The notes below the pieces were generated by a model. The model did no database searches, had not been told where the DNA came from, and saw nothing but the letters and a program-made list of their open reading frames with translations. From NCBI GenBank assembly GCA_965178125.1, contig OZ237749.1, positions 930,001-994,000 on the forward strand: 64,000 nucleotides of DNA, written 5' to 3'. This stretch comes from Bilabrum cf. latius (taxonomy: Eukaryota). Below are positions 189 through 64,000 of this stretch, piece after piece. Both the position numbers and the translations under genes were made by a program. Each line of letters opens with the position of its first letter. The stretch's first letter is position 1.

Positions 189-3056
189 ATGCCTCGGACT
201 CGATCTGGGACGCGGTCATCGAAGGCAGATAGCCCGCATGCCGGCGCCAAGAAGCAGGCTCGTGGAGCACCGATAGATTTGCACAAGCAGCGCCGATTGG
301 TGGACTATGGCAAGTGTTTCAGAGCATTGAGGCATCCTGAGTCATGGTCATGCACCTAGTCCGGGACTACAGAGGATGTGGTGCTGCTGCTAGGTACTGG
401 ACAAGTGTCTAGCTACTCAGATGCGAGTGTGCCATCAAACGGTTGCCGCTTGGCACTGCGGCTGGGTGAACGCCCTTTCAATATCATTGACTTGACAGAT
501 GGACAGCCCATCGATGTCTCCGTCGAACGCACCGGTCTTCTCCAGAAAATGCGAATTCGCTGCGCTGCCCTCCAACGAACGGTGCTCGGGTCCGCGGCAG
601 GCACCGGGTTGGGCGGCAAAGAGAGCCCTTGGGAGCACCTTAGAAGGTACGTTAGGCTATTTAGCCTGCCATTCTTCAAGGCGGAGAGCCTTCGGAGGCG
701 CCGGCTCGACGACCTGCGTGCAGCTGCCGAGCTGGAAGAGGGCGAGCAATCCGAGGGATCAACCGCCAGTGGCAGTGGCGGCGAGTCTGAAACTGGGTCC
801 GCAGCTGCAGGAATGTCACAGGAAGACGAGCAGCTGCAGTCTGTTCTTGAGCAGGAGCAGGCCACGCTGAAGCGCATCCTCAAGAAGTCGACCGAATACC
901 GCCACGAGGCAGGCAGCAAGCGAGCCTCCTCCTCCTCCTCCTCCACCTCCTCTTCCTCCTCATCCTCGTCGTCGTCATCGGGGAAAGCGCCCAAGCAGGC
1001 AAGAGGCCCCACCCCGCCAGGATTCACGGGCCTCCGTAACCTCGGCAACACGTGCTACATGAACAGCACCCTGCAGTGCCTCTCGTCCTGCGTTCCTCTG
1101 AGGCGGCTGCTCTTCGCCTGGAGGCCGCCAATCGTCACGTCGTACGAGGAATACCTGGGCGGCATGGCGGCCACGGGGCAGCCGTACGGAATGTTTAGAG
1201 CTGCCTCCATCGGAATGCAAGATGGTGTCTCCGAGCCACTCGGCGGCGATGCGGGGCGGGGCTAGAGTGCAGGTGAGGCAGGTGAGGCAGCCGAGAGCCC
1301 CGCGCTGCAGGCGGTAGGGAACGAGGAGTCGGCGTCTCTGCTGACAGCGCCCAAGATGCTGCGGCTACCAAGTGAAGTGGTCAGGGCCTTTGAATTCGGC
1401 GGGGGACTCAGGGGCGGCTCCACGCCGGCTGCTTCTCTTGACGGCGCGGACAGGCCTGCATCATCTGCCCCTGCCCCTGCTTCCTCTTCATCCTCGTCCA
1501 AGGGGGACAGCAAGACCAGACAGGCCTCTACTGGCACCAAGTCGAGCATCGGCACAGACAGGGACTCGCAGAGAGACGTGCAGGGGTCAGACCTCGCGTC
1601 TGTACCCCTGGGCTCTGCAGTGCACGGGTCGCTCAGTCGCCTGTGGATGCCTGCCAGGCTACCCATCTACACGCCGCAGGCCCTCTTGTCGACGGTGTGG
1701 AGGAGCCTTCCGCGATTTGCGGGTTTCAGGCAGCACGACGTGGACGAGTTCCTGCGGGGCGTGCTCGAGCGGCTGGACGAGGAGCTGAGGGCAGCAGCGG
1801 GATTCGGTCAGGCAGGCAAGGGTGGGGCCAAATCTGGCTCATCCTCATCCTCGTCGTCGGCTGCGGCGGCTGCGGGCGGCCAAGGCGAGAGCGAGGCGCC
1901 ATCGACTCCCGTTGCGTCAATGTTTACACACGAGACGGTACGGAGGGTACGGTGTCGAGCGTGCGGGCACGTGTCGGCAACGAGGAGCTCTGCAATCGGG
2001 CCACTGCTCGTCGACATACCTGCCCGATTCTCGGGGCAGCCCAGGAGCAGGAGCCGGTCCAGGGCAGGGGAGGCGTGTACCCTGCGCAAGTGCCTCGAGA
2101 GCATGTGCGAGCCATCCGCGCTCGAGGGTGATTGCAAGTACTAGTGTGATTCGAAAGAGTGCAAGGGCACCAAGCAGGAGGCAGACATCTGGGTTTCGCT
2201 TGGCAAGCTGCCCCCAGCCCTGCCAGTCACGATAGTTAGGACAGAGTGGACCATGCAGGGGCGCGTCAAGAAGCAGACGCACGTTGAATTTCCGCTGGAT
2301 GGTCTGCAGCTCGCTGATTTCGACGAGAACGGTGCTGTTGGTCGAGGCCCCATGGCCCAGACGGCTGCTGGCAGCGCTGCCTCCAACGCAAAGGCAGGAG
2401 CGCACTGCAATAGCAAGGCGTCGAACAGCAACACCGTTCCGCCGGCTAGCGGCGGTGTCGAGACGAATCCCGAGTACTCGCTCGTTGCCTTGATCGAGCA
2501 CCACGGGAAGAAGCCGACATCCGGCCACTACACGAGTATCGGACGGCGGGACGCGTTGTCTGCCAGGCGACTGGCGAGCGGGAAGCGTGTCCTGAAAGGC
2601 GGCGAACAGTCGGACGCATGGGTCAATTTCAACGACGCCCGCGTGAAGGTAATCTCCCCCGACGTGGTGCGCAGCACTGAGGCCAGCATGCTCATGTACG
2701 TGCGCTCCGACCTCTTGTCTAGACCGAGGGCCTCGGGGTTGGCCGGGGAGCTGTTGCACAGAGCAGGCTTTGTGCTGCCACCGACTGCAACGGTGCTGCT
2801 GGATAAGACGGGGGACGGCCATGCAGACGTGGCCCTCACTGTGGCCCCGGGTGACGTGGACCAGCTCTCGGCCGAAGGAGCGTGGGGCGCACCGGTGTCT
2901 GACGATGACTCTGCTGCGGCAGACGACCAGCCACTTGGGGCAAAAAGAAAGAGGCAGGGTGTTGACGAGTCTGAGAGTGCGTCAGACGAGGCAGCTGGAA
3001 GCAAGCGATCATCAGGATCGGAGGGACGTGGACGGAAGGCTCACAGGGTGTCGTAA
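189..3056 (+). CDS. Ubiquitin-specific protease (USP/C19 family), ~955 aa, read through 3 TAG codons
   Basis: ATG 189. ORFs 378-1265, 1356-2144 and 2253-3056 share one frame, with TAG at 357, 1263 and 2142. Cys box GLRNLGNTCYMNSTLQCL, QHDVDEFL, His box HHG..SGHYT and WVNFND are spread over the three pieces. Ends TAA. Confidence 0.9.
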
Positions 3057-3215
3057 TTCGACCTAGGATCTCCCTGCCTACTGAGCGGGAATTCGGGGGG
3101 TTCTGGAGTCCGGTGGGGCTTGGGTGCACCAGCAAACATGTGGCTCGAAGCCAAGTACAAATTTGGTTTTTCACTGAGCGAATCCGTAGGATGTGTGCGC
3201 CTGGCACTTAACAAG

Positions 3216-6200
3216 TCACATTCGAGACCCACTTCGCTAGGAACGCATCGCCAATGCCTGCATGCGCAAAGAACCCATCGCGCCACCAGGTTGCGGTCTC
3301 GTAGAGGACCGCCGTATCGCATCCGATCGGACGGCAGAGGGGCGGAGAGCGCGGTCTGCCGGCGCAGTGGCCGTTCTTGAGCGTTCGCGTTGCTCATCGA
3401 AGCCAGCGCCGCCAAGCAGGCTGGCGCTGGAGTTCCCGCCCTGTGCTGCAATTCCGGCACGACCTCGGCTGGAGCTGGTCTGTTGCTGTGCACCTCCTGA
3501 GACAGCCCTGTTAGAGGCCTACCGGCGAGCAGCCTGCACTGTCCTGTCCCATGCATCTCTGCGTGAGCTGCCCGTAACCGCCCTAGCCAGCCCTGCCTGG
3601 ATCTCGTGATTCATTGCAGACTGCTTCCGAGCTCCCACCGTTCGCGCCGCCACCCTTAGCTTGTCCAACGGTGACACCTTGGCCGCTCCCGGCGACGACA
3701 GGCCGATTCCACTTGGAGGAGCGACTGCAGCGGCAGCATCTGCGTTCGCTGCACCGCCCCCATCTAGATGCAGCCTGGACGATCTTTGCCGCTGGTTGAC
3801 ACCCACACTGGCCACTGGTGCCCTTGGCCCGGACTGATCAGATTCGCCCGGCCCGCGCGCCGAGTAAAAGCTCACCCTGCCGGTGCGCGCGCGATCTACG
3901 CTCGCAATGTGTCCCCGTGGTCGCATAGACTGCCTCCGCGCCGCCTGCGCACCGAACACCTGCGTTCGTTGTTGCCCGGATCCAGCGGCCGCACTCTACC
4001 CTCCGAGCTGCGAACCTCCCCCTCCCAGTGCAGACTGTGGGGTGAGCCCAAGGAAAGCCAGCGCACGCTGCACTTGATCTGGAAGCAGCTTATATGGCGT
4101 GGGAATGTACCCTTCGGGCACTTCCCACTGCCTGGCTCGAGTCAGCACGTTGATGTAGTACGGCAGGCCAGTATCCGTGGTCAGCTGCCACCAGCACTCG
4201 GCTGGAAGCGTGCGCACGTCCGGCGGCCTGTTCCATTGCGTGATACCAAGCTATCGATTCACCCAGTACGGCACCTTGCGCAGGGGGTGCGACTTGCGCT
4301 TCCAGCTCCGCAGCACAGAGGACTGGAACTCGGCCAATTTCTCCACATCGCGTGGCTTCTCCCACTTGTTCTTCTTGCTCTGCGCGTTGTACCAGAAGCT
4401 CTCGTTCGTGGTCGGGTGTTCCCGTTGGATCCACAGGGCTGCATTTTGATGCAGGTCGGCGAGCTCGTTGAGCGTCTGCCGTGCAGTGGCCGTTGGTGCC
4501 ACGCTGACAAGCTCGCGGGCAGTTGCAGCTGCTTGCTGGGAGGCTGGCCCGGTCAGCAGTGGAGTCACGACTGCCATGGACAATCCCGCCGCAGTCCCGC
4601 TCGTGTATATGGAGGACCGTTCTCTATCTCTCCGAACGCTGGCAGTCACATCCGTCCTCGGACTCGCCGCGCTGCCTAGCTGCCGAGACTGCTCCGACAA
4701 GGATGGCCCCCTGCTGTGGCTATCCCCGGACTCCGCATCCATCTCGCGAACAGCACCCAGACGTCCCATATCTAGCCCAAAACTCGATGGCCGTGACTGG
4801 CGCTGGCCCAGCCCTGGGAAGTGCAGCCCGCGCCGCCCCGGAATCTCACCCCTGCCACTGACGCTGCGTCGGCGAGCTCCGACTCCCTCCGTACCTGATC
4901 CTGACTCGTCCCCTGTCTCGGCGCTGCCGCCTTCAGGTCCCACGTCAACCATGCCGGATATCATCGACCTCCGCGAGGACTGAGATCGCGTGCGGTATCC
5001 CGCGCGACGGTCCTGAATGCTGCCCGACCGCTGCCTCTGAATCCCGTCCACACCTGCACCTGCACCTGCGCCTGCACTGTCTCGACTCAGCATGGGGTTG
5101 TCCCTCATCCAAGCACCCAGGTCGCCCTCGTTCTCGCCAGTCCCACTTGCGCGACTCCCTGACGCCACCTCGCTTGACGCACTGGATCCAGCGGGCCGCG
5201 ACATGACACCCGGGTGCTCACTACCACTGCCAGCCCCGTCCTACTCGCGCATCTTTTGCTCCTGCTCCTCCTTGTCAACGATCCCTCGGCTGCGAAGGAG
5301 GTACCCTCTAGGTCCAAATCGAAACTTGCCACGAGCGTGCCCGACAGAGGCATCCCCACCGCGCACAGGCACCATTACCTGGCCCTGTGAGGAGCCTCCC
5401 TTCGGTGATACCCCTCCCGGCGCTTCTTTATATTCCTGCACGGCGGGAAGCGGGTCAACACCGGCCTGCCGCCCCCTGCGACCTCTCGATCGATTGAGCA
5501 TTGCGGCCAGCCGCTTCCCTTTCTTGAACTGAACCATTGCCTTGCGCTGGGCGATCGATCGTGCCGTTGCAGTGGCAGCGGCCTAAGCCGCCTGGGGCGG
5601 CCTGGCTGGCAGCGAGGCACTCCTGAACTCTGTGGCCGTCGAGGTGCTGGAAGCCGTGGTGCTGGCTCGGTGCCTGCCCAGCAACGGAGCGAGCTCTACC
5701 TCGCCCTCCGCGACCGCGGGAGCCGTGGTCATCTGCGGCGTGATGGCATCGGCCACGGTGCGGGCCCGTCCCCTCCTCCGCCTCGCCACTCGTGGCCCTG
5801 TGACTGGACCGGCTCCTCCGTCCACCGGTGTGGATCGGCCGTCTGCCTCTGCAGCTAGTTGCAGCGCGCCCGCATGCATCTCGTCGGAATCGCTCGTGCC
5901 GTCCTCTGAGTTGGCTGCGTCTTGCCCGGCGTGCTCTTTGGCCTCCTTTGCGGCGCCGAGGGCCAGCAGAAGCTGGTTCGGCTTCCACTTCTCTTCGTCC
6001 AGCTTGTGCCCCGTGAACACATTGTGCACCCCTAGCTCCTCGCCGTACCACATGCGGTTGAAGTCCAGCACGGGCAACACCCTGAATCCGTCCGAGCCCA
6101 CAACGCCCTCCACTCCGGCAGGCATCTCGAGTCCGTAGCTGCTCCTGCGCCTACCCCTGGTGCGAGCCGCCGTCATCTTGCGGGCCGGAAGCCGCGCCTG

Positions 6201-7952
6201 CGCCCGCTGGTCCTCGAGCAGCTGCAGCGCCTTGCGCACCCGCTCGGCCAGTTCTGCACTCCTGGCCGCAGCCACAAAGTCGTAGACTAAGATGGACAGG
6301 CACACGAGCACCACGGCAGCCACGAGCACCGCGATGGACACGGCGATGAGCTGCCGTACCACATCGGTGATCCCGCCCAGAGCGAGCAGCTGGCCCAGCA
6401 GCAGCACGAGGAGCGAGGTGATGATCGAGTACTGCTCAACCTGCCCCTACGTGTAGTCGCGGAACGGCTGCAGCTGCAGGTGCAGGATGAGCGCCGCGAG
6501 CTGAACCAGGATGCCGCAAAATATCTGGTGCCCGAACTCGTTGCCGCCAAGCATCACAGAGACTGCCACTAGCAGAGACTTTCTGGCCATAATCACGGAC
6601 TCGTAGTAGTACGTGTCGTTGCGATACCCCTGCGATAGTAGGAGAGCAGCGGATGGGATGACTCAGCAGTGCAATGCGGTGCACTTGGCGGGTCACGATG
6701 TGGTTCAATGAGATGGGAATGCGAGGGCCTGTGCGTGCCCGTGGTGCAAGTGCTTCTAGGCGAAGTCGCAATCGATAAACAAACTCACGCTGAACAGGAA
6801 CCAGACCCTCCTCCTGGCCTTTTCAGTGTCCAATCTGTCTCTGAACCTGTACATGATCAGGGCGCACACCACTGGGAAACCAACAGTAAACAGCACCAGC
6901 ACGCCCCAAGCGCCGTACGAGAAGCCCCTATGCAGGCTGGTATCGCACCGAAAGCTAACATCGGCTGCCAGATAGCTGATTCCGTCCACTTCCTCTGTGC
7001 ATCGAAGGATCTGCATTGCCGACGTGGTCACGGTGGGATAGAGCAGGAACAGCAGGAGGAGGGAAACGGTCGTGTACAGGGACAGTGGAGACACGGAGCA
7101 CAAAGTAAGGGGGATAGGTACGTAGTCTGGGTCCTTGGCAGCCATGTCTGCCTGCCCCCAGCGGTGGCAATCCACGATGGTGCGGATGGCAATCCCGGGC
7201 AGGATGGTGATCACGGGCACCGCACAGGAGAGCGCCATGAACCGCAGGTAGGGAGACCACTGCAGCGCGCAGTCCGCAAACGAGGCATCCAGGCTGAAGG
7301 TGCTCGTGGTGGATACTCCTTGGAAGAATCCAGAGATGGCGTTGGGCCACTCGAGCTCGAAATCGTTTAGCAGCGCCACTGTCGAAGCAAACGTCAGCAG
7401 GATTTTGAGCGTCATTAAGCTCTCGCGTCCGGACGTTCCAGGCCTTCCGCCCGCACTGGGATCTCCAAGAGGGTTTTCCAGCCCCCCATCAGCGGGAGGC
7501 TGCACCGTTTCGGCCCTGGACCCCAGCGTCGTGATGCTGCCTCGGCGGACGGAGGCCCCTTCCAAATCCGATGCCGGCGGTATAGACAGTCTGGACGACT
7601 TGCGATTCCTACCTTGTCTAGACGATGCCAGTCCCCGCAGTATCGTGAAAGTAATGCCGCACAAGACGCTACCGCTGATAAGCGCTACGAGTGCGATCGA
7701 TAGCGCGCTTGACGGGCACCTTGAACAAGTTGGCCTTGACCCGACATTTCTGCCATACCCGTCAAGGCATCCAGCGCACAAAACATCATCGTATCCGTCC
7801 GCGCAGTCTGTCTCCAAAGTGGTTTCGTTGAACAGGCACGCAGCTGGATTCAAGCATCGCACCGGCGACCATCCAGGCGGTCTACCCTCCAACGCAAGGC
7901 GAGCGGCCGTAGCGTTTGTCCAGAAGTAACCATCAAATAAAACATCGCTCAT
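3216..7952 (-). CDS. Multi-pass membrane protein with Cys-rich N-terminal segment, long disordered cytoplasmic tail and three WW-like domains (~1500 aa; start uncertain)
   Basis: ORF 6756-7952 is spliced (intron 6630-6788, FLFS|GYRND) to one frame that continues through TAG at 6447, 5583, 5241, 4251, 3996, 3519 and 3237 to TGA at 3216. WW-like repeats W..(F/Y)(W/Y)xN...W..P at ~4100-4445. Confidence 0.75.
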
Positions 7953-8145: not shown

Positions 8146-11100
8146 TCAGCTTCTTCGGCATGCCACTGCTTCGTCATCCGAGTCGGCATCTGCTGCACGT
8201 GCAGGCGCCGGCGCTGGGCTGGCAGCACCAACAGCCGATGCAGGCTGAGGCTCCTCCTTGCTCCCGCTTCGAGCCCTGTTCCGCGATCGGTGCCTGCGGC
8301 TGCTCGTGCGTCGCCCCGCAATGGCACCCCCATCATCATCATCGTCCTCCTCATCGGAACCGCCGGGCCCCACCCCCATCCCAGGCGCACCCCCCCCTAG
8401 CGAGCTGCTGCCAAGTGAAGCCACAGAGGCCGCCCCAAGCCCGTGCAGCCCGTCCGTGCTACCCTCGCCCTGGCCGGCACCAAACAAAAGGTCGGGGCTG
8501 CGGCGAGCAGGGCCCCGGGGAACACGCTCACCGGCGTGGTCGTCGAGAGACACCGACACCGAGCCGGACACGGACACGGCCGCGCCGCTGCCCTGCCTAC
8601 CGCTCGAGTCCCCAGCGGCTGGGGCAGCAGCATCTCCGGCCGCAGCCCCTGTCCCTATCCCTTGTCCCTGCCCTGTTTGCAGCCCCGCCCCCGCCCCCAG
8701 CCCGCCAGCGCTCCCTCCAGCACCCCCACGCCCACCCTCCCCGTCCCCGTCCCCCTCGAATTCGAGCCGACCGCGCCCGCTCGCCGCCCTTGCCACACTG
8801 GCCGCCAGCTCGTCCGGGTCCTCCTCCACCTCCTCCTCCACGGGAGGCCTCTCTGCCACGCGCCGGGCGGGCGCCTCGTCCTCGTCGGTGCCGAGATCCG
8901 TCGAATCGTCCGTTCCCACCCTGGACACTAGCTGGTCGATGTCTCGAGGGCGGGCAGGCGTCCTGCCAGCCCTGCCCGACTCTGGTGTCTGCGCCCGTGG
9001 CTCCAACTCTCCCTGCGCATGCGCCTGTGCCCCGGTCTAAGCGTGCTCGGCGACCGCTGCCAGGTCGAGGTCGAAGCTGGCCACCGCTGGTGCGCCGCTC
9101 TCCGTGCGTGCCTTCCGTCGGGCGGCAGGCAGGTCCGAGTCGGTGCGACGGTGCATGGAGCGCTTCGGGGGCGGTGTGGAGCTGCTGGAATCGGGGTGGT
9201 TGGCTTCTCCTGGGGCGCGAGAGCCGGGCCTTGCCCTCGGTTTGGCCACTGCGTCATTGTCATCATCATCATCCGAGTCCTGCTCCACGATGGGCCCCTG
9301 TTCCTGTGCCTTGGCCATCGGGGGGTTGGCTGCTGCCATGGGCTCCACCCTCGTCGTCTCTGCAGCGCTGGACGTTGTTGATGGCACTGGTGCTGTGCCA
9401 CGCGCGCTTGAACTCGCTGCATTCGAGTCGTGAGGGTCCGGAGAGGCCGCGGATCTGGACACCACGCGGCGAGCAGCAACCATGGGGGAGACGGGTGGGG
9501 ACTCCTAGCTCTCGGTGGACAACAGCGCCCCGGCACCTCCGTGTGAACGCGCCCCTCCTGTCTGGCCCGCGGCTGCGGCACCACTTCCGCTTCCACTAGG
9601 ATCGCCAGCAGCCTCCCCATCGCTCGTCCGCTCCCCGTCCAGCTGCGATAGATCCACGCTAGTATCAAGCTCGTCCGCAGCACGACCAGAACCGTTACGG
9701 TCCTGATCCGCCCCACGGCTGTCGCGTGCCCCTACGGCGGCACCGCCGGGTGCAGCAGCAGCAGCCGGATCCCCCGCCCGGCCAGGCCCCTGATCGCCCG
9801 CCCTCTCGCCTCCGCCCATCATTTCAAGCGCATGTGTCAGCGTGGCGCCACCTGAGCTGCCCTCGGCCTGCCCCTGGGCCCCGCTCCTCTCCCCTCCATC
9901 CCCACCTGTGCCTCCTTTCCTCTTCCCGCTGAAGGTTCTCCGCATGGCCCTCGTCCACTCGCCGCTGCCGAAAGACGCACCGACACCCCTGCTGGAGGAC
10001 CCGCCCCGGTGCTTCGGCTCAGCCACGTCCTCCGCCGCCTTGTTCAGCTGCTCTTCCACATCCTCAGGGAACACCCACGTGGCACCGGGCAGCAGGCTCT
10101 CGCCCTGCCCCCTCCGCTCCTAGTCTGCCACCTGCGCCAGCGCGGCTGCCACGGTCGGCGGCACGTGCGGCTGTGCATGCGCATGTGTGCCCGCCCCTAC
10201 CGACGGATCAGTGGCCCGTGCATCGGCCCTGCCAGGTGCCACCGCGCCTCCCGTTGTTGCAGCAGATGTAGCGGAGGGCAGCGAGGGCCCCTGCTAACCA
10301 CCAACAACAACCCCGCTGCCGCCGTTGCCGCTACTGCTACTGCTTGCCGACCTCACGACCTGGGCAGTGGTGGCGGAGAGCGCCATGGCCTTGTCGATGG
10401 CGAGGCTGGCAGCATCCCGGATGGGCCCTCTGCGGCTGCCCGTCTCCCTGCCCCGCCCCACCCCGCTGCCAGATCCCTTGGAGCTCCCCCCAGCTGCACC
10501 AGTGCTCCCTCCTGCTCGTGCACGGAAGGAGACCCCTCTAGTGGGCCCCGACCTGCGGGGACTGCCACCTGTCGACTCGGGTGCCGCTGCTGCAGCCACA
10601 CCGGCGTACAGGTGCTTGTACAACGGCACGTCAAGCTCTGCGCTCACGCTGTCTGCCCTACCCCTGGTGCTGCCCGCACGCCCACTTCCAGCCCCAGCCA
10701 CTGCTCCTGCTCCTGCACCTGGGGCCTGCACCACGCCCTCTGCCCCGCTCCCCGCACCGATCGCCTGCGCCTCGGCGCCCTCCACGGCGTCTTTAGCCAG
10801 CCTGAGCGCCTTGCCAACCACGTCCTCCGTAGGAATATCGGGCACGTGTTCCCTGAGCTCTGCCAGGAAGGCGCCCTCCTCCGGGGCGCTCGCGATGAAG
10901 GCGTGCCGCAGGAGGGCAGCCGCGGAGGGACGGTCCTCCGGGCTGTAGAGGAGGGCCTGGTGGACAAAGTCGCGGAATTTCCTCGAGAACTTGGAGGGGT
11001 CCGCCACGCCCTTGACTCCTTGGTACGAGTCGAAGGAAGGCGGCTTCTTGGTGAGCAGTCGCACGAGCACGTCCTCGCTGTCCAGGTCAGAATAGGGTGC

Positions 11101-11983
11101 TCTCCCCATGGCCAGCTCCAGGGCGGTGATGCCCAGGCTCCAGATGTCCACCTTGCAGTCGTATCCCTCCGCCGTGTCCAGGACCTCCGGTGCGATGAAG
11201 CACGTGGTGCCGACCAGCGTCCTCGTCTTGCGCTTGAAGGCCTCGGCCACGGGCTCCCTCAGCCACTGGGACACGCCAAAATCGGCGATCATCGGCCCTT
11301 CCCTGCCGTCGAGGAGCACGTTCCCGCCCTTAATGTCTCGGTGGATCATCCCGGCGGCATGCAGGTACTGCAGGGCCTGCAGCGAGGCGCGCATGATGGC
11401 CGCCACCCAGCGCTCGGGAAGGCCGGGACCGCACAGATCGGCCTTCACCGCTTCCGGACTCTGCGCAGATCTTGTAGCAAGGCGTCGCATGACCCTTACT
11501 GCCGACCCTTTCCGCATCATGGGCACGACCACCCAAAGTGTGTCGCGCACAGCGAAGGCGCAGTTGCACGGCAGCAGGGCAGCGCACCGGCTGCTGCGCA
11601 TGATCGCTACCTCTGTCTGCAATTAGGTCAGCATGGAAGCACAGTGAACAACAGTTGCCAAGACGAGGCCTCGGCCACCAGAATAGTGCGGTTCGCAGCT
11701 TTCTCTCACACCGACAGACTCCACTGGAACCTAGATGTGCTCGAGTGCCATGATTTTGATCGCGCATTCTCGCTTTAAGCTCAAGCAGTATGCCTAATAC
11801 ACCTATCCATACGAGCCCTGCGAGGTAAGGCGTGCTGTCGAAGCTTAGGGCGTGTATTCCCCTGCACATCGTGCGCTTGGCAACTTGTCCAATCATCGTG
11901 CAGCTCACCCTCCCTATCCTTCGTCCAAACGCATACTCTCCCGGTGTCACGGGCCACAACTCATCTCTATAGTCAACTGCCAT
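8146..11983 (-). CDS. STE20-family Ser/Thr kinase (OSR1/SPAK/fray-like) with long acidic disordered tail, ~1217 aa
   Basis: Introns 11818-11908 and 11617-11709 give IGR|GSYG*VY*A...CAIK. HRDIKGGN, DFG and APE are intact. TAG at 11803, 11794, 11731, 10294, 10120, 9505 and 9037. Ends TGA TGA. Confidence 0.88.
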
Positions 11984-20799: not shown

Positions 20800-21029
20800 C
20801 TTGTCTGCAGAGTGGAGCGGCGCGATGGATGCCTGATGGCAGCTCCGAATCAGCGCAGTGGCGGAGCTGCACAGCGATGATACTGGTCACCGAACGCAAC
20901 GATGACGCCCCAGCGCAGCGACATCGCACGCAGGGCTCGCAGCGAAGCTTGTACCATGTTCTAGTGCCTCCAGGCTCGCCGTGCTCTTCTGCAATCCTTG
21001 CAGCTGATCAGCAGCTCTGCCTGCCGTCA

Positions 21030-36046: not shown

Positions 36047-36596
36047 ACTGCGATACGGACCGCATACTGGCACATAGTTGTCACTTATTAAAACGCGGGA
36101 CAGAGAACCCCACTGCCTGCCTTGCCGCTGCCGGGAGTTCACGCATGTGTTGCTGCTCATTGCAAAGCATCGAGAAATCGAGCACCCCTACGACGCATAT
36201 TTCACAAGCTACTGCCTAGATCGGCGAAGTATTATTCGATTCATGCGCAGTGTATGGGCAGATAATCCACCTAACGTGTCTGGTAGCCTCACCTTTTACA
36301 AAGTGTGAGGTGTCTGCGATTTTCCCAAAAGCGCACGGTACAAAGGCTACGAGTCGCGCGCGGCGCGCGCGTAGCGAGTGCAGAAAGAAAGGCAAGGGAG
36401 TGACTACCCTCCTCACAACAGCCACATTTCAGCTTCAGGTGAGAGAATTTTATGCTTTTTCTCAGATGCCCTCCGGTGAAAAGGCTGGTCAGATCGTGCT
36501 ACTGGTAGCATTCCTGGTCACAACGAATGCAGTCAACCGTTGCATTGCCAGAATACCACGGCTTGCACCCACTTACGACTCGCAGGAATCGCTCGA

Positions 36597-40161: not shown

Positions 40162-40352
40162 ATTGCAATGTATTCCGATAAAATTATACGCAAAGTACGA
40201 CTTCGTTAGCTCTGTTTGTTGCAATTTTTGCAAACAACGCTAGCACAACTCGGAGTTGAATGATATTGTAAGGTTTACTTCATGGCGTAAATGAGAAAAA
40301 TCGAAATCAAGATCAAGAACAGGTGGTCTTTCATTAGATAAGTTGGGCTGGA

Positions 40353-52079: not shown

Positions 52080-55000
52080 TCACTTCCCGTCTAGCTGGGA
52101 GGCAACGCCCCCAATGTGCGCGAGGATGCCCTGTGCGGATACCGCCTGGACTTCATCGACACCGGCTGTAGCACTCCCGCCCCCATCTGGTGATGACGCT
52201 ACACCGGATCCTCTCTTCACTGCCGCCTTCTACCTCCCGCCTGCGACGCGCTGCCTCGCGAGTGTCCTGGAGGCCCCTGCCGCCGGCACTCTCCTCCTGC
52301 CGTGGCTGCGGCTCATGGCCCGGCCGCCCAAGCTCCCGAGGCCCCTTGCCCTGGACATGGCCCTCGAGCTGCTGGTCCTGCTCATGGCCCGGCTCACCGC
52401 CCTCGAGGCCGACCGGGAGCTGGACCTAGGCCTCTCGGGGGTGTAGCCCTGCGCAAGCGCGGTGTCGGGCGTGAAACCCTCCTTCTTCATCTCGCGGATC
52501 TCCATGGGATTGTACTGCTTCTTCGCTCGGGTCGCGCTCGTCGAGTCATAGTAGTGGTGGTACCGCCCTCCCGCCCTCCCGCGTGACCTGGTGGCCTGCG
52601 CCGTCACGTTGTGCACGAACCGCATCAGGGCGTCGTCGCCGGAGGGGCCCGGGGACGAGCCCTGGAGCGAGGAGTTCGCACTCGTCACGCCAGCACCCCG
52701 ACGGACGCCTCGCCTGCCACGCGGCCGCTCCGTGCGCCTTCTCGAGCTAACGCCCGCCCGGGCCGATGCCTTGGACCCGAACCCCCCCCTGCCCCCCGTG
52801 CCCAGACTGCGGCCCGCCCCCACTGGTGCAGCCTGGGCGGACCCGGGACTGCCGAGCCCGCCCCGTGACGCGGCCCGCAAGCCCGCAAGCGCCGTCTCGA
52901 TGCCCTCTCTCCCGCTGGTGCTGCCCCCGACTTGGCCCCGCCTGGCTCGCGCCGCCACAGCCTCCGGCGAGGGCGACCGGGAGCCGCCTGCGGACGGAGG
53001 GCCCGAGCTGCCGCTGATCCCCGCCGCCGGAGCCACGCCCGACCGTGGGGTGCCCTTGTGTGCAACACCAGCCCCCGCATTGCCAACTGGTCGCTGCCTC
53101 GGCCTGCTATCACCCCTGCTACGAGACCTGTTCCCTGCCACGCCTCGTAGCCTGCGGCTGCGGGAGCGCTGCTGCCGCTCCATGGCGTGCTGTCTGGAAG
53201 CGTATCTCCCCATCCCCTTTCGCAACGGTGCAGCGTCAGCATCAGACACCCCGGTGCCTCGTTGGGTCCTCCCAGCTCCTGTGCCAGCTTCCTTGCCAGC
53301 ACCCTCAATCCCGGGCCCATCGGTGCCGCCCCCAGCCCTCATGTCGCTGTCCCTCCGTGGCTTGGACTCCAGCGTGCTGGTACTACTGAGCCTGCCATCG
53401 CCCTTGCCCGCCGAAGCTGCCGCTGCAGCCGCTGCACCCTGCCTGCGGGTCGGAATTGCAGAGGTCCTGCCCGTGCGCCACACGGCAGCGGCGGGCTGCT
53501 TCCCCTTTTCGGCGGACGAGGGCGACTTCTTTGCGTGCCTGCGCCGAGTGGCTGTGCCTTCCTTGGCCCCTCCCGCACTGCGTCTATCCGCAGGCACCGA
53601 GGTTCCGCCTCTTACCGGAATCGATGCGTCGCGCTCTGCTCGTGCAGCACGACCAGGGTCTGCAGTAGATCCTTCGCTGCTCTTCTTCTTCGGCTTGGGC
53701 AGAACGGGCGGCTGGATCGAGCTGCGGCGGCGCTGGGCCGGCCTGCCCGCCGCGAGCCTGGCCCACTTGTCCTCCTTGGCCCAGCCCTATGGGCCGCTTT
53801 TACCAGGACCGTCCCCTTCTGCGCCTTCACCGCCGCCTCCTACGCTTGCGCTGCCTTCGACATGAGGGCTGGGCTGCGCCTCACCACCATCCTCGCCCTG
53901 CTTGCGTGTGCCAGGCCCACCGAACGGCACAACAACCTCTGTGTCCGTGTCTGAATCATCATTGCTGCCAGCAGAAGATGCTGCGTCTTCGCCTGCTCTG
54001 TCGCTTCCAATGGCTGCAACCCCAGGCCGATCGGCATTGCCTTCCAGTTCACCGTCGTTCGACCGTTCTCCAGCCGGTATCTTGCCCTCATCATCCTCTC
54101 CACTCGGTCGATCGTCCACTGCATCGTTGCCACTCCCTACTGCGTCAGCATCGGCCTTGCTATCAGAATCTCCGCTGCCGACTCGTGTAGCCTCGGCTGC
54201 CCCCGCCCGCTCTGGCTCCGGCTCTGGCTCTGGCTCCGCCTCTGGCTCTGGCTCCGCCTCTGCTGGCTCTGGCTCCGCCTCTGGCTCTGGCTCCGGCTCG
54301 GCATCGTCCACGCCCATGGCGCTGCGGAGCTGTGCCGATTGCCCTGGACCCACAGACACGCCCGCGTCCAGCACCATCGGTCCCACAGCCGCCTGCTCCC
54401 GCGCCCAATCACCCGCGGTTGGTTGCTGCCCGAGAGCTCTCTTGGCCTTCGCCGCGTCATCCTCGCCGGCACCATGATCCCCACCGTCCCCATCGCCGTC
54501 AGCATTGTCATCCTCGCGCTCGCCGACTGCTTCCAGCTCCGGCACAGGCTCGAGCACGGCCGATCGCTCCGCCAGCGAGCTTCTTCCTGGCCTAGGTGCA
54601 ACCTCAAGAGGCCCCCTTCTGTCCCGGCTCTTCTCCTCCGTGCCATCCCCGCTGACGCCGTCGCGGCCACTGGTTCCGCCCGCTCCCTGATCGGCCTTCT
54701 TGGCCTTGTCCTCCGCGCGCTTCAGCTTTTTGTTGAGCTGTACCACCTGCTTCTTGTACTCGGCCAGCCGAACCTTGAGCTGGCGCTCCTGCTCGCTGGT
54801 CAGGGGCGACGACGGAGCGCTCCGGGTCCTCTTGGCGGCGCCCGGCCTGCCCGCCGCGCGCCCATCACCGTCCTTCGTGGGTGAGAACAGTCCGAACCCC
54901 AGACCGGCTGGGTCACCATCAGCTGGGCCCTCGCCCTCCTTGGACTCAGACCCCTTGGCGCCCTAACCGCCCAGGGTACTACCGGCAGCAGCGGCCTGGG

Positions 55001-58000
55001 CCAGCTCCAGGGCGGCCTGCAGGTTCCTTGCCTTTCTCCTCTCCTCCTGTGCCTGCTTCTCTGCTCGGTCCAGCTCGGCTGCCAGCACCTTCACCTCCTG
55101 GCCGTGCGACTTGCGTCCGCCGTCCACCACGGCTGCGATCCGTCCCTCCGCCGCCTCCTTGGCTCGTCTCTCTCTTGCAGCGTCCTCCTTGGCGGACCGA
55201 AGGGCGGAATCAGCCGAGACCAGCTGGCTGCGCAACCGCCTCACCACGTGGTCCTGATTCTGCGCGTCAACCGCTTTAGAGGCACGGCCCAGCCGCAGCC
55301 GACGGAGCCGGGCCGCGAAGGCCAGGCACTTGGCAGTGTCTGCAGCCGTGGCAGGGGAGGGACTGGCAGTGCAAAGCAGGGATAAGAGCCCGGGCCCGTC
55401 TTCCGACAGCACGTCCTGCAGCATGTGCGTCACCTGCGAGGCGCGGTAGGGCACCTTGGACTGCTTTTTCTCTATGGCTTCCACCACGCGGCCCAGCGCG
55501 GTCAAGCTGTGAGTCGCGGGGCCTGACCCCGAGCCGTCTCCTCTCCTACCTCCATCGCTGGGAGACCCCTTGCTTTCCTTTGACCGGCCCATCGGACCAA
55601 CCCAGCGCTTGCCTCCTGGCGTTGATCTGCCGCTCCCGTGCTTGGACATGGGAGATCCGCCGGGGCCGGAGCGGTCTGGCACTTCCATCCAGGCCAGGTC
55701 CACAAACATGAGCCGCCCGTGCATGCGGGCCTGCGGAGAGAACAGCGCAGAGGCCTAGCCTACCTGTCCGCTGCCCGGGTACCCCTCGGTGCCTGCTGCA
55801 GGCGAGCGCCCACCGCGAGCTGGCTGCAGCACGGGCAGCATGGAGCCTTGGGCCTGCGCTACAGCCGAGGGCATGGCGGGCATGGAGTGAGATGGGACCA
55901 TCCGCCTCCCTGTCATGGAGCCTGGACTGGCCACGCCGTGGATGCTAGAAGGTGCTCCGGGAATCGGCCGGTCAGTACTCGGCTCCATTCCGCTCAGCGT
56001 GATGCGGCTGTCGAGTCCGTCGTCCGCAGCACCGTATGCAGGCCCCTCCACGTCTACCACCACGAAGAAATGCGACCGCCGCAGGTGTTCCCTAGGCCGC
56101 AGCAGCCCGTGCTTTCTCGTCTCTATCGCCTGGCGAAACACGGCCACCAGCTCTGGCGTGCTCGATACGATTTCCCGGTGCGCACCTTCCAACCGCACGG
56201 CGCCCTGCGAGCCGCCGCCCCGAACCACCACTTCAGGCAGCCCACGCGTGTCGGCCGTCACTGCGTGGTGATGGTGATGATGCTGCTGCAAGTGGTGCCC
56301 CGTGCTCCCGCTGGAAGATCCGAGAGAAGAGGCGGCAGCTGCCGAGAAGGAGCCCTTGGCCTGGGCCTCCTTGATCCTGGAGGCACTGCTGCTCAGAGCC
56401 GGAGACTGGGACTGGGAGGGGGACTGGGAGGGGGAGGCAGGGCCCCCGCTGCCGCTGCCGGTGCGATGCAGAGCACCTGCCTTGCTGCCCTGCAACAGGT
56501 CGAATACACGATTCTGGAACACCTCCACCACGCTCAGCCGCACGGCGTATTTGAACGCATCTACCGGATCGCTGGGGGGCTCCTCCCCCTCTGGGCCCAG
56601 TCCGGAGCTGAAACCGAGGCCGCTCGATCCGCCCCTCTCGGTAGCAGCCTTCTCCAGTCGTTCGGCAGCGATCCGAGCCGCATCCGCTCTCGACATGAGC
56701 CCGTTGCCTCGAGCATGCAGCACTCGGAGCAGCTTGTCCACGGAGCGCAGGCACAGACCAGGGTACGTCCCGTCCGGTGAGCCGCAGATCGAGTGGGTCT
56801 TGCCGGAACCAACAGGTCCGTAGGCCAGCAAGCAGGCATGGAGCCCATCTGCTGCTGCCTGCACCAGGTGCTCATGGTGCCGGTAGAGCCCCATCTGCCC
56901 CACTGATGGCCCCAGGACTCGGTCCAAGCAGAACGGCCTCCAGGCGTATGCCTTGGACCCGCGCTTGCCCTGGGTCGAGTCGTACACGGCCAGGTCCTGG
57001 TCGCTGAGCACCTGCACGCAGCTGCCCACGTCCCTCGGCTGCAGGTTGGAGGAGCAAGGGGCAGAGAGTCCCCCGAGTGAGCCGTCGCCCCGCTTGGCGG
57101 AGGCGGGGTACTCACTAAAGTCCAGCTCAAGCCCGGTCCCGCGGCGGTGCATGTCCCCAGGCGCCCCTGTGAAGGTTCGCCGCAGGTCACGACCGCTTCC
57201 GTCCTCCTCGACCATCGTGCCGATCCCTCCCGCACTCCCACCGGGCCCGGTGTGCTCCACGAACGCCTCGTCGTGGTGACCCCCCATCGAGTCCCCGAAC
57301 CCCGACAGCCGCAGCCACCTCGCCTTCGCCTCCTCCCTGAGCCCCTCGAACCTCGCCCTAGCCTCCGAGGTACCCGCACCGTCAGCAAGCAGCCCGATCA
57401 ACACCCGCTCGCTCGCGACCTCTTCCACGGAGGGCGGCCTCACCCGGCAGCACACCACCACCCTACCGCTTGACCTGTGCATCTCACCCAGCAGCGCCGC
57501 ATTCTCCACCACGAGGGCCGCGCACCTTCGCAAAAGCCACGCCATGTACCCCCGGTCCCTGTCCGTCCCTGGCACAGCCCTCCGTAGCACCAGCTGATTG
57601 CTGGGCTCGTCCGCCGACGGGTCATCGTGCCGTTGCACGCGCCCTTCCTCCCCGCGCACGACAAGCGCCACCGCAGCCTCGTCGTCCCGCAGAACGATCG
57701 CGTACCCCTCCTCGTCGTCCAGCGACCACTGTGAGGACGCGCGATCCCGCCCCATGGACTAGGCCGCGTCCCTGCGGCGCGCACCCAGCTGGGTCGTGCG
57801 CGAAGAGGGGACCAGCTGCAAGGCACGGCCGTTCGCGTACGCGCGCCCCCACGCGTCCGTCGACTAAGCCATGACCGCGCTCCACAGGGCGGCGGCGTTC
57901 TGCGACTCGCGGCTGTCTGAAGGAGGCCGCGGGGGTTCCCCGCCAGCCTCACTTCCCGATGAGCCTTCCCGTTCCTTGTCCCTGTTCCTGTCTCGGCCGG

Positions 58001-61000
58001 ACACCGAGCCGAAGGCGCTGACGGCCTCGCTGGCTCGTCTTCTGCCACCCACCGCGCGAGAAGCGCTGTCTTCTTCAACACCGTCCCCGAAACTGTCCCC
58101 AGACGCACCAACAGATCGAGCCTCGCTCCCTGCCCTGTTGCTGGCGCCGATCTGCCCTGCAGGGGCCGAAGCGCCGCGGCTTGACTGCTCCCCTGCAGCT
58201 GCCACGGCAAGCGCAGAGGCATGCGAGCCTCCCACGCGCGCCTCCCCGTCGAACCCCTCCGCTGTGGTACGCAATGAGGCCTGCATGGCGGCGTCCAGCC
58301 GGGCGGCAGCCGCGAGCGCGGCCGCTTCTCGCTCGGCTGCTTGGTCCCACGTGCGTCCGGCGTCCCAGCTGGACGCGCCGACGCCAGAGGCAGCCAGGAA
58401 GCGGAACCCGAACCCCGACCGCAGGTGCTCGCCGTCCTGCAGACCATCTGCGTCTCCCGGCCGCAGCACAGACGCCCCTTGCCCGTCTTGCGCCGCCTTA
58501 CGCACCTCTGGCAGCGCGTGTGCCCCTGCAGCCACCTCTGCGGCATCCCTCGACAAGATCTCCACCAGGCGGTGCAGACGGGTGGCCAGTTTCTGCACGT
58601 TGCCGTGCTGGCCCAGCGCCCCCGCCGATGTGGCAGCCCGCCCCTTTTTATCCACTACGTGGTGCCCCCGAGTGAGCAGCTTGGAGGCCATGGCCTGGGA
58701 CACTCGGGCGCGGGAGGCCAGCGCGGCCAGCTGGACCTTGGCCTGCTGCAGCCCTGCAAAGGCGCCCTCGCACCGGAGGTAGATGGCTCGCAGGCTCTGG
58801 GGCTTGTCCGTGCTGGACCGGATGCCCTCGAGCAGGGGCGGCCAGGGCAGCGAGGAGTACTGCTGGGGCGCGATCACGGCGGGTGCCAGGCCAGAGGCCG
58901 TGTCCAGGTCCAGCTGGGACCACCGGGAGGCGGCGGTGGAAGGGGTGTTCTCCCGCTCGGGCTCCCGCTCGGGCTCGGGGCCGTCTGCCGCCGCGCTGTG
59001 CATCGAGGGCGCGGCGCTGGCGAACTCTAGCTGCAGCTCGGCGGTTTCCCCGCCCGGGGATGCGGATCTCGAAACGTTGGCGCTGACTGGAGGTAGTTCC
59101 AGGCGGTGTCCCGCGGTGCCGTTGACCTTTGCCTGCCCCACGCTCCCCTGTGCCTCCCACGGGGGGCCCCCGTACCCGTACATGGCCCCGAAGTAGCCCT
59201 TCCAGCCCATCACTCCGTCCGGCCAGCCCCTGCCTGCGCTGCCCCTCACCTGCGCGTGCGCCTCCTCGTCGTCCGCTCGGATGAACTTGACACCAATGTC
59301 CCCGTGTATGCCCGTGTGCCACTGCCGCAGCGAGTCCAGTGACTTGGGCTCCACCCCCCTGAGGCCCCTAGCCTCCAGCGCCTGGTTGGCGCTGTCCCAC
59401 CACTTGAGAGAGAACGAGAGCAGCCGGCGGAGCCTCCACACTGCCTGCTCCGTGATATCCAGGTGTTTCTTTCTCTCCTGCAGCTCCCTAGTTGCCCTCC
59501 GTACCGCGTCCTCGTACAGCATCAGCGCCTCCCTGTGCTCCACACTCTCTGCTGCGGCCCTCTGCACATCCTGCTCCAAGTGAGACACGCGCTCTCTCAG
59601 CACCTGCACCTGTAGCTGTGCCGCCGCCGAGGACTGTCGCGTGCCCATTCCCGTGCCTCCGTTCTGCAACCCACCCGAGGCACCATCTGCGGCTGCGGCT
59701 GCTGCCGCCTGTGCCGCCGTGAAGCTCCGCAGCTTGTCCCTGGCCTCGTCCCTGCCACGGATCGCCCGCTCCGCCCTGGCCGCAGCCTCGTCCGCTCTTG
59801 TTCTCTCGGCGCGGACGTCCTTGAGGAGCTGTTCCACCTGGGCCCGGGCCTGAGTCAGAGATGCCTCAGCTCTCTGGGCCCGGGCAGCAGTTTGCGTGCT
59901 TTGGGAGCTGCCAACTGCGCTGCTGGCGCTGCCTGCTGCAGCGGAGGGCGATTGCTGTAACGCCGCCCGGGACGCTAGCTGCGCTCCCATAGGTCGAGCT
60001 CCTGCCCCTGCGGAGTCGCTGCGCCCATGCATCGTGACGTCACTGGCTGAGCGGCGCTGGGCAGCCAGGGCCTCCGCTGTTGCGAGGGCTTTCTCTTCTT
60101 GGCTTCCAGCTGCCACGCCGGGAATTGCGGTTCCAGCGGTCATGTCGTCAGAAGAGGTTTTCTGCTCCAGGATGTAGGTGCTGGATGTGTTTGTCTCAAC
60201 GTGGGACTGCACGTGGTTGGATCGCAGCTCCTCCCGAAGGTGAATGATGATCTCGTCGCGCTCTCGGAGCAGTTGAAGAGCATTCTGCGATACTTTCAGA
60301 GGCACGCAGTCAAGTTGGAATTGAAACTTGAAGCACAGGTGTCGTCCAATGCGCCCTGAACGGCTGCTGAAGACGACGGCGGAATTGCAGCTTGCATGGT
60401 CGCAACTGCAACAACCGCCGTGCCAATTCCCCGGGGAAGCAACTCGACGCCTGGCCAGCAACAAAAAGCGATATGCGCACAAATTCTATGATTCGCAACG
60501 CGGAACCGCAGTGGCAGCTTACCTTTTGCGCGATCTCAGCCTGAGTCCGTTCGGCTTCACGCAGCCGCTTCTCTTCGGCAAGCTGAGCTTGAGCCTGACC
60601 AAGCTCTGCTTTCAGATCCAACCGCATCTATTCTTCCCGTTTCATGTCTTCCCTAAGGTTGTTGATGGCCTCTTCGGCCTCTACCAGCTGCTGGTGCGTC
60701 TCATCGTGTGACAGTGAGGCCGCCTCCAATTCACCGAGCAGCCCTTCTGCACGCTCCACGGATATCTTTCTCTCATCCTTCTCCTGCTGCAGCTCTTCGG
60801 CTGTCTCTTGCAGCTAGATCTGTACCGCCTCGTACTACTCTCCAAGCTGCTTGAGCTCGTTTTCCAGCTCAGACTCGATGGCCTCGCTCGATTTAGAATA
60901 CTTCTCAAAGTTCGATTGGAGCTCTTTCAACTCCGCTTTCCGGTCCTCAGCAAGTTCTTTCCAGTAATCAGCTTCGTCTCGAGCGGTTGCGAATACCCGC

Positions 61001-61867: not shown

Positions 61868-61963
61868 ATGAATGAAAAATGGCATCCCGCCGATGGATCA
61901 ACACCGATAACAATTCATCACTCACGACATACATTTTTGCTTCTTGTAGCACCTTGCTTGCTA

Positions 61964-63302
61964 TCATCGGCCCGCCCCTCCGCTGGCGGCAGCGCTCTTG
62001 CTCGCCCCGCCCGCCGCGGCCGCCTTGGCAGCAGCAGACGAGGACGAGGGCTTGAGGAACTGCTAGATCCACGGGTGCCTGGGTACACTGGATAGAGACA
62101 GCCGCTGGCTCGGGTCCTTCTTCAGGAGCCGCTGCACGAAGTCCCTGGCGGCGTCTGAGACGTGCGCGGGGAACCGCAGGTCCACCTTGACGATCCTGCG
62201 GTAGGTCTGCGTGTTCCCCGGGGCGTCGAAGGGGGGCTGCCCCACGAGCAGCTCGTACGCCAGCACCCCCAGTGCCCACACATCCACCTGGTAGTTGTGG
62301 TCTTTGCCCTCGACCATCTCGGGGGGAAGGTAGTCCAGTGTCCCGCACAGCGTCCTGCGCCTGGAGGAGGGCGCGTGCACGGACCACCCGAAATCCGCGA
62401 TCTTGAGCTCGCCCTTGTACCCCACCAGCAGGTTCTCCGGCTTGATGTCCCGGTGAATCACGTGCTTGGAGTGGCAGTACCGCAGTGCCCTGCTCAGCTG
62501 CAGCACGTACGAGGCCGCCTTCCTCTCTGAGAACTTGCCCCTCCTCTGCAGGTCCTTGTACAGCTCTCCCCTGGGCGCGTACTCGAGGATGAGGTACACC
62601 CTCTTCTCGTCCCAAAAGTACCCGTACAGCCGAAGGATGTTCCTATGCCTCAGGTTGGACTGGATCTCAATCTCCCGACGCAGCTGGTGCTCCACACCGG
62701 ACTTGGTCAGCTGCCGCTTGTGGAGCACCTTGATGGCCACAATGTAGCGGTAGCGCTTCTCGCGGCACAAGTACACGTTTCCAAACTTGCCGCGTCCCAG
62801 CGGCCGGCCAATATCGAAATCATCCAGGGTCCAACGTCTCTTGGGCTCCATGCCTGTGCCCCCACCGGTGTCGTCGCCTGCTGCTGCCTTGCCCTCGGCC
62901 GCCCCAGCGGCATCGCTTGCAGCTGCACCAGATGGCATGGGTCGCAGCATGGCCGAACCGGATGAGGATGCCATAGCATCTTTTGCAATCTTAGATGCCA
63001 TGTCGGACGTATCTTCTGCTCGTTTTGTGGCACCACCGCTTGGAGCAGCAGCTGCAGCAGCAGTAGATCGGGGCAGCGACGGGGCTGCAACCTTACTCCC
63101 ATCTCGCGAAATATCTCCGGCATTTGCCTTCGAAGAAGAGTCTCCAAGAGCACATCTAGCAGGTTTATCGCTAGACGGTGCTGTAGTTGTGCCTGCAATA
63201 TGCAATACTGTCGCTCGAGCAAGAGTGCGCGGATGAGCAACTGGATGGATTTGGGTCGACATTGCGATACTTCGCCGTTAGCCACTCACTTAATGCACTC
63301 AT
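61964..63302 (-). CDS. Aurora kinase
   Basis: [52 protein letters not shown]. Probable intron 63193-63289. TAG at 62063 (HPWI*Q). Ends TGA. Confidence 0.93.
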
Positions 63303-63470
63303 AGTACTATGAATAAACGGTTTCCTGATTGTGGATTCTTGAGTACCAGTAGCAGAGGTACTTTGCAGAGTGGCGCGTATTGCCCAGAAAAACGGACCGA
63401 AGCGTATTTGAAACAGAACGCTACAAAGCAAGCGAGCGCGAAATACTTTACGCCCTAATTGAGAGCCAAA

Positions 63471-64000
63471 ATGGCCGCTGTTTCAGGGTCCAGTGGTGCC
63501 CTGTAGGAGAAAAGTAGCAATATCAGTCCATCTTCAGAGGACAAGTCAGAAGGAGCCGCACCTCCCGTTTCCAAGCCGGTGTCGCCGAACGACTTCGAGG
63601 TTGGCAAAATATTGGGAAAAGGCAAGTACGGAACGGTATATAGGGTCCGCTATAAGCCCACCAAGTAGACACTTGTACTTAAAACTGTTCTAAAGCGAGA
63701 GATTCTGGTAAGTGCAGCTTCAATCGCAATGCAGCTCAGCACTCTGGGCAACGGCTACCAACGTCAACTCTGTTGGATTTCCCTGTTCTTACCTTTGTCA
63801 AACGCAGGAGGATGGTGTCAAGCACCAGTTGCAACGTGAAGTTGAAATACACTCGCGCTGCCGACATCCGAATATTGTTCGCTTCAAGTGCTTCCTATAG
63901 GACAAGGACAGGCTGTACATGGTGCTGGAGTACTGCAACAAGGGAAACTTGTACGAGATGATGCAGAAGCAGGCCGACAAACGATTGAGCGAGGATACGG
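63471..64000 (+). CDS. Second, divergent Aurora-like kinase (truncated by window end)
   Basis: DFEVGKILGKGKYGTVY, intron 63708-63807, HQLQREVEIH..CRHPNIVR, LYMVLEY. TAG at 63504, 63666 and 63898. Confidence 0.8.

Follow-up and report, generated by a model that had tools for sequence, protein, structure and literature searches.

In-frame UAG codons, predicted to be read as glutamine, in nuclear genes of a GC-rich protist

We analyzed a 64,000-nt stretch of contig OZ237749.1 (positions 930,001 to 994,000; hereafter the window) in which genes on both strands are interrupted in frame by TAG codons. The window, at 62% G+C, comes from the nuclear genome of a GC-rich protist whose introns are short and of the GT-AG type. 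Reading frames were bounded by TAA or TGA only, and a non-overlapping set was picked by a codon log-odds score, which replaced a filter on third-position G+C (GC3) that could not tell sense from antisense frames. The 19 chosen frames hold 79 in-frame TAGs among 17,774 codons (∼0.44% of all codons, spread over unrelated genes), with at least one TAG in 18 of them; an initial annotation had come to a similar count, about 83 TAGs in 21 of some 24 genes. By hand tally, ∼64 TAGs in 17 of 18 genes are probably borne by mRNA. The tally falls below 79 because it leaves out intronic TAGs (two in the intron of the glutamyl-tRNA synthetase (GluRS) gene and two of frame 34553-35035 in introns of the aminopeptidase N (PepN) gene) and several further TAGs 5′ of probable start codons.

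Pfam matches name most of the genes that follow. On the forward strand, a ubiquitin-specific protease (USP; 189..3056) carries TAGs at 357-359, 1263-1265, and 2142-2144 and ends at TAA; its UCH domain (E=1e-40, envelope 280-837) spans two of them, codons 359 and 652. Two reverse-strand genes come next: a WW-domain membrane protein (3216..6662; Pfam WW) with seven TAGs, including codons 804 (4251-4253), 889 (3996-3998), and 1048 (3519-3521), and a Ser/Thr kinase with a long low-complexity tail (8146..11622; Pkinase, E=8e-37) with four, one of them at 10294-10296. Cytosolic GluRS is encoded on the forward strand, where exon 2 runs to a TGA stop (12387..14592; PF00749, E=7e-91). A 93-nt intron (12294..12386; GTAAG...CAG) precedes this exon and accounts for the two TAGs that come first in the stop-to-stop frame; the exonic TAGs are codon 69 (12502-12504, numbered in frame 12298-14592) and codon 440 (13615-13617), the latter in the catalytic domain. 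Pfam also recognizes an FkbM-type methyltransferase. On the reverse strand lie an MFS transporter, whose main exon (16938..18727; Sugar_tr, E=6e-42) has a TAG at 17694-17696 and two GT..AG introns upstream (18728-18841 and 18879-19005), and a Sel1-repeat protein (19168..20886; Sel1, E=3e-36) with five TAGs.

The reverse strand continues with a multi-pass membrane protein of 590 aa (25576..27345), which belongs to a conserved family without a name or a Pfam match and has TAGs at codons 31 (27253-27255), 76 (27118-27120), 85 (27091-27093), 210, 238, and 457. A secreted GH78 rhamnosidase-like protein (27605..30784, reverse strand; assigned by Pfam) has TAGs at codons 59, 541 (29291-29293), and 903 (28205-28207), and a GH28-like enzyme lies beside it. 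PepN is split by introns on the reverse strand into an N-terminal exon (35039..36295; Pfam), with a TAG at 35180-35182, 13 codons ahead of the GAMEN motif, and a C-terminal exon (32514..34415; DUF3458_C, E=7e-62) that ends at TGA. An exon of a dTDP/UDP-glucose 4,6-dehydratase-like protein (38855..40183, reverse strand; PF16363, E=2e-59) has a TAG at 39527-39529 and closes with TAA. Three further reverse-strand frames follow: a coiled-coil/acidic frame of 2,589 codons (41582..49351) with 17 TAGs, a kinesin-domain frame of 2,812 codons (52080..60518; Kinesin, E=8e-33) with seven TAGs, and an Aurora-type kinase (61964..63277) with a TAG immediately behind the kinase domain (62063-62065).

The GluRS, USP, PepN, dehydratase, and GH78 domains thus all contain TAGs. 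Alignments to solved structures cross the TAG without a gap in GluRS (E=1e-154), the dehydratase (E=7e-82), and PepN (E=1e-62); the alignment of the Aurora-type kinase (Aurora B, E=7e-127) stops on a TAG, and phmmer found no match for the GH78-like protein among solved structures. At the level of single genes, the initial annotation had stated that a TAG splits USP between its catalytic boxes, that cytosolic GluRS is affected, and that TAGs fall upstream of GAMEN in PepN and in the middle of the dehydratase domain; the positions given above agree with each of these statements.

The abundance of in-frame TAG exceeds chance. In an in-frame, homology-supported set of 3,821 codons we counted 8 TAG, 0 TAA, and 0 TGA, together with 122 CAG and 11 CAA, whereas over these stretches the other two frames, 7,626 codons in all, have 26 TAG, 19 TAA, and 128 TGA. 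TAA and TGA are therefore excluded from coding frames, and TAG is nearly as common inside as outside them. Under the standard code, the longest frame in the window is 873 codons. Reading TAG as sense produces the frames of 2,812 and 2,589 codons, while reading TAA as sense leaves frame lengths almost unaltered and reading TGA as sense gives a maximum of 1,000 codons. When the window was simulated 60 times with a first-order Markov model, the largest TAG-sense frame reached 893 codons, against the 2,812 observed. Both long frames scored as coding, the kinesin frame at +0.27 bits/codon (-0.38 and -0.58 in the other frames) and the 2,589-codon frame at +0.46 (-0.34 and -0.80). TGA terminates 17 of the 19 frames and TAA the other two (USP and the dehydratase). 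The counts agree with the initial annotation in that TAG alone interrupts the frames, with no internal TAA or TGA, and that the frames end at TGA or TAA.

We then compared the window with contigs, rather than raw reads, from other sequencing runs; RNA-like coverage was limited to 12001-32000, and the ends of the WW, USP, dehydratase, and Aurora genes lie outside it. A 9-kb stretch of the window is complete in runs X1-X4, which come from one sample, and is present to 82%, 66%, and 44% in runs X5, X6, and X7, respectively. The latter three belong to two other studies (P2 and P3) and are labeled as other organisms. Contigs from X5, X6, and X7 skip the 93-nt GluRS intron, which is kept in the DNA-like X1, and one X5 contig also has the MFS introns spliced out. 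Depth in X5-X7 varies ∼100-fold between genes, and contig ends coincide with gene ends. None of the three runs is recorded as RNA; we treated them as RNA on the basis of the spliced contigs, since splicing, depth variation, and contig ends at genes together show that they behave as such.

Both exonic GluRS TAGs (codons 69 and 440) are covered in X5, X6, and X7 with zero differing letters. Among the contig pieces listed, 20 in-frame TAGs are covered in X5, 6 in X6, and 7 in X7, again with no differing letters. The X5 contig over the membrane protein includes all six of its TAGs, another (27344-30781) covers the three GH78 TAGs unchanged, and the Sel1 TAGs are found in X5 (all five in one contig) and in X7 (three). 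Letter-identical spliced contigs exclude assembly error, editing, and splicing as explanations for the covered TAG sites. The check in RNA that the initial annotation had proposed therefore came out in favor of its reading, in contigs from two studies.

The same contigs bear on transcript structure. Untranslated regions (UTRs) look very short, although contig ends are imprecise. GluRS contigs finish 14-33 nt past the TGA (14592-14625), the GH28 contig begins precisely at the ATG at 30886, and the membrane-protein contig begins 25 nt 5′ of its ATG (27345-27370). In one X5 contig the MFS exon is connected, via a 37-nt exon and two introns (114 and 127 nt), with sequence that overlaps the 3′ end of the upstream Sel1 gene (18728-19005 and 19006-21919). 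Either the MFS 5′ exon is located in the 3′ part of Sel1, or overlapping transcripts were fused during assembly. An X1 contig has one additional C after 23236 relative to the window. The site is ∼37 codons short of where frame 23125-25572 ends, so a frameshift error may be present in one assembly or the other. Small shares of the 9-kb stretch also occur in "algae" and "protist" metagenomes (runs X8 and X9). Occurrence in runs under other labels would fit a small flagellate living in other cultures.

Relatives of the window's organism also carry in-frame TAGs. The top GluRS match is an environmental protein (90% identity), followed by Cafeteria roenbergensis (58%, the closest named organism) and then by oomycetes and fungi (∼50-55%). 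A metagenome contig of 5 kb (L001) matches window 9894-14489 in gene order, with ∼79% nucleotide identity; megablast gave nothing, and blastn at word size 11 revealed the synteny. This contig has in-frame TAGs of its own, two in GluRS and two in the kinase. In the codon alignment, window GluRS TAG69 pairs with CAA and TAG440 with CAG, whereas TAG33 of the L001 GluRS is CAA in the window and TAG218 of its kinase is AAG. One site, the kinase TAG at 10294-10296, is TAG in both, and two further pairs (GCC and AAC) fall in badly aligned low-complexity sequence.

Proteins predicted from other relatives point the same way. A WW protein 93% identical to that of the window (P0123) has Q at codon 889 and ends just before codon 1048. 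A second (P0124, 93%) ends just before codon 804, and a third (P0125, 79%) begins right after it. These boundaries at window TAG sites imply that gene callers using the standard code cut the relatives' genes there. Judging from these alignments, the in-frame TAG is a trait of a clade that includes at least two related environmental organisms, with some TAG sites conserved. With conserved domains interrupted in frame, spliced contigs that keep the TAG, and relatives that share the trait, the proposal of the initial annotation that UAG is a sense codon stands.

The membrane protein was most informative about the amino acid. An exhaustive profile-free search returned 141 homologs, of which 67 were aligned and 74 C-terminal-only matches were left out. 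Of the 53 rows filled at the codon 31 column, 50 have Q, two V, and one S; the column at codon 76 has Q in 38 and E in 21 of 63. The column at codon 85 is variable (G 26, D 7, S 6, Q 4, K 4, and others), and codons 210, 238, and 457 lie in poorly aligned regions. The closest relative, ∼90% identical over the conserved part of the protein (P0126), has Q at both codons 76 and 85. Near-invariant motifs of the family are a Gln in the first transmembrane segment, FGQR, QLALP, TGGQG, and REPLG.

The GluRS columns are less uniform: W 59, H 28, and Q 24 of 120 rows at codon 440, and A 43, S 39, and Q 14 of 109 filled rows at codon 69. Q is the only residue frequent in both; it is carried there by the nearest relatives and has the best joint score. 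Cafeteria has an ordinary Ile at the GluRS site. Across the well-aligned differences from close relatives (73-93% identical), the partner of TAG is Gln in six of seven cases and Lys in one. The choice between Gln and Arg is settled by the near-invariant Gln column at codon 31. UAG is accordingly predicted to be read as glutamine; the initial annotation had named no residue. Two other assignments had been considered. Leu or Tyr/Trp, first hinted at by hydrophobic contexts and by W or Y in solved GluRS structures, was rejected on the column and relative data. Recoding of the pyrrolysine type was rejected because TAG makes up ∼0.44% of codons in unrelated genes and because of the Gln column at codon 31.

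We consider it very probable that UAG encodes glutamine while UGA, the main terminator, and probably UAA still end translation, a code that we take to be NCBI table 15. Several observations, however, weigh against this reading. Neither ARAGORN nor Rfam at its gathering threshold found a tRNA in the 64-kb window (no Rfam family at all reached that threshold), and no eRF1 gene lies within the window. A BLOSUM-based likelihood computed before the membrane-protein data gave Q 0.89 and left 0.10 to R. At five TAGs of the 2,589-codon protein, relatives that are 61-66% identical (P0121 and P0122) have R, R, H, R, and I, never Q, and distant homologs also lack Q at TAG sites in the dehydratase (F, Y, T, G, H), PepN (T, I, I, I, V), and the Aurora-type kinase (K). 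X5 was labeled "probably DNA" by a tool despite its spliced contigs, and X1-X4 may be the source of the assembly itself. The support for UAA as a stop is thin, as it consists of two TAA ends in frames that were delimited by TAA and is partly circular. Finally, the 100 codons after WW TAG 1048 and the 29 after Sel1 TAG 543 have neither a GC3 excess nor a coding score, and UAG may be the terminator of these two genes. As for the 2,589-codon protein, it is fast-evolving, and its run of Arg is odd for a Gln codon; our guess is that CGG-to-CAG-to-TAG paths lie behind it.

If UAA and UAG both encoded glutamine and UGA were the sole stop, as in ciliates and hexamitins, UAA might simply be too rare to be seen in 64 kb of GC-rich DNA. 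The predominance of TGA as a terminator agrees with such a code, CAA makes up 11 of the 133 Gln codons of the homology-supported set, hence few TAA are expected, and at the kinesin frame the 30 codons that precede the bounding TAA are coding-like (GC3 0.87). Even so, were TAA a Gln codon, ∼7 would be expected over all frames at the CAA:CAG ratio (∼2 in the two longest frames), and none is found beside the 79 TAGs. The USP and dehydratase frames end at TAA with no coding score beyond it (-0.30 and -0.20 bits/codon), and six of the eight segments upstream of a bounding TAA lack a coding signal. We regard this code as quite improbable, and it is likely that UAG alone was reassigned, as the initial annotation had claimed; the absence of in-frame TAA and the two TAA-ending frames speak for that claim, with the proof being as thin and partly circular as stated. 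UGA is a terminator, given the 17 TGA-ending frames and the absence of in-frame TGA against 128 off-frame, and the C terminus of the membrane protein aligns with the ends of its homologs and is followed by TGA. UAG might, on the other hand, be read as Gln inside genes and terminate some of them by context, as in Condylostoma and karyorelicts and as UAA in Blastocrithidia. The non-coding tails of the WW and Sel1 genes would suit this, as would the conservation of TAG 1048 in a 93% identical relative whose predicted protein ends there, and the apparently very short 3′ UTRs seen at GluRS. TAG is, however, not enriched toward the ends of the 19 frames, whose final 100 codons contain 7 TAGs where ∼8 are expected; TGA stops are plentiful, and what follows the Aurora and kinesin TAGs looks coding; the 32 codons past the Aurora TAG score +0.33 bits/codon against -0.58 and -0.42, with GC3 0.81. 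We rate a dual role for UAG as unlikely. Tandem in-frame stops were also seen in the window: TGA TGA after the Ser/Thr kinase frame (8143-8148) and after an 815-codon frame (23122-23127), and TGA TAG after the Aurora-type kinase (61961-61966).

The remaining alternatives concern the residue inserted and whether the TAGs are translated at all. That UAG is sense for Arg, Lys, His, Glu, Leu, Tyr, or Trp could draw on the Arg-rich run of P0121/P0122, on the single TAG-AAG pair with the metagenome contig, and on the W or Y at a GluRS site in solved structures. Against it, none of these seven residues occurs in the codon 31 column, the two GluRS columns contain no K and a single R, and two of the six Gln pairs with close relatives involve CAA, a codon that differs from TAG at two bases. 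We judge another residue to be very improbable. The last alternative, that the TAGs remain untranslated through assembly error, pseudogenes, RNA editing (UAG to CAG or UGG), or splicing out, is scarcely credible. Nothing was found in its favor, it leaves unexplained why TAG but never TAA or TGA interrupts the frames, the contigs from the two other studies are identical and collinear over the TAGs while splicing true introns, and the relatives retain in-frame TAGs.

Reading UAG as glutamine has precedents from which a mechanism may be drawn by analogy. By comparison with other lineages that changed UAG to Gln, UAG would be decoded by a tRNA-Gln that bears the anticodon CUA and probably descends from tRNA-Gln(CUG), and eRF1 would no longer recognize UAG efficiently while retaining UAA and UGA. 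New UAG codons would arise mainly from CAG by C-to-T changes at glutamine sites. Panek et al. 2017 (PMC5304391) notes that CUA, one base from tRNA-Gln(CUG), is the sole anticodon able to read UAG but not UAA and that UAG-only lineages have eRF1 changes near residues touching the third stop-codon base.

The closest known system is the fornicate Iotanema spirale, in which UAG is Gln, UAA and UGA are stops, and eRF1 has a T32G change in the GTS motif (PMC5304391). There, as is likely for the window, UAG alone became Gln, which was concluded from in-frame UAG at conserved transcript positions, and tRNA-Gln(CUA) and an altered eRF1 are expected. Iotanema is, however, an anaerobic metamonad with UAA as its primary stop, whereas the window has 62% GC, mainly UGA stops, and a stramenopile as its nearest named GluRS relative. 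According to McGowan et al. 2024 (PMC11687900), the phyllopharyngean ciliates Hartmannula sinica and Trochilia petrani likewise use UAG widely as a Gln codon and keep UAA as a stop; they are ciliates that prefer UAA stops, in contrast to the window with its conventional introns, high GC, and non-ciliate affinities. UAG is Leu in the rhizarian exLh and in TARA phyllopharyngean ciliates, as described in both papers (PMC5304391, PMC11687900). These resemble the likely code of the window in that UAG alone is reassigned and UAA kept as a stop but differ in the residue, as Leu occupies 0 of 53 rows at the codon 31 column and is absent from both GluRS columns. Both also list UAR as Gln in Tetrahymena, Oxytricha, hexamitin diplomonads, and some ulvophytes (PMC11687900, PMC5304391), again a change from stop to glutamine with tRNA-Gln(CUA) among the decoders; UAA is sense there as well; the window has no in-frame TAA and two TAA-ending frames.

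To place the organism, we built a GluRS tree with FastTree from 73 of 121 rows (48 named fungal rows were left out; a single gene, top hits only). The window and P0001 fall in an unresolved group with the Cafeteria clade (SH-like 94), beside oomycetes and ochrophyte-like rows. The taxon appears stramenopile-like and is unplaced, and we take the tree as a lead rather than a placement. In a protein atlas, the PepN C terminus matched bacterial-type clusters only. The UAG-only cases that the initial annotation had cited are right in substance (PMC5304391, PMC11687900). As to its suggestion of an undescribed case, literature searches and passages of two reviews gave no report of a nuclear code change for stramenopiles or a comparable GC-rich flagellate, but the supplements of the two code papers may list more taxa, and priority of this kind is not provable. 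The code is probably that of Iotanema, arisen independently in another lineage and against a different base composition. A more far-reaching version, in which a GC-rich, bicosoecid-like stramenopile clade was recoded, as the first in stramenopiles, and reads UAG by context, including at gene ends with short 3′ UTRs such as WW TAG 1048, strikes us as a long shot.

Some features of the enzyme genes deserve mention in their own right. The GH78 (reverse strand) and GH28 (forward strand) genes lie head to head (27605-32256) with starts ∼100 nt apart. Both encode secreted, glycoside-hydrolase-like proteins with signal-peptide-like N termini, and the GH78 sequence is distant from all solved structures. 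Between the two large PepN exons (34416-35038, reverse strand), three short introns surround the HEXXH and WL.EG motifs, and the exon bearing HEYFHN has only ∼19 codons.

Changes of the nuclear code are rare, and those that separate UAG from UAA are rarer still, those named in the two code papers being a single metamonad, a single rhizarian, and some phyllopharyngean ciliates (PMC5304391, PMC11687900). If independent, a GC-rich, UGA-terminating, and apparently stramenopile case would offer a further instance in which to study the evolution of eRF1 and tRNA-Gln toward distinguishing UAG from UAA. If true, it would also test the need for AT pressure or codon disappearance, since UAG should not vanish in a GC-rich genome. 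Gene calling under the standard code shreds such genomes, and the public proteins of the relatives are cut at the exact TAG positions, so that errors are being carried into the annotation, phylogenomics, and metagenome binning of the clade.

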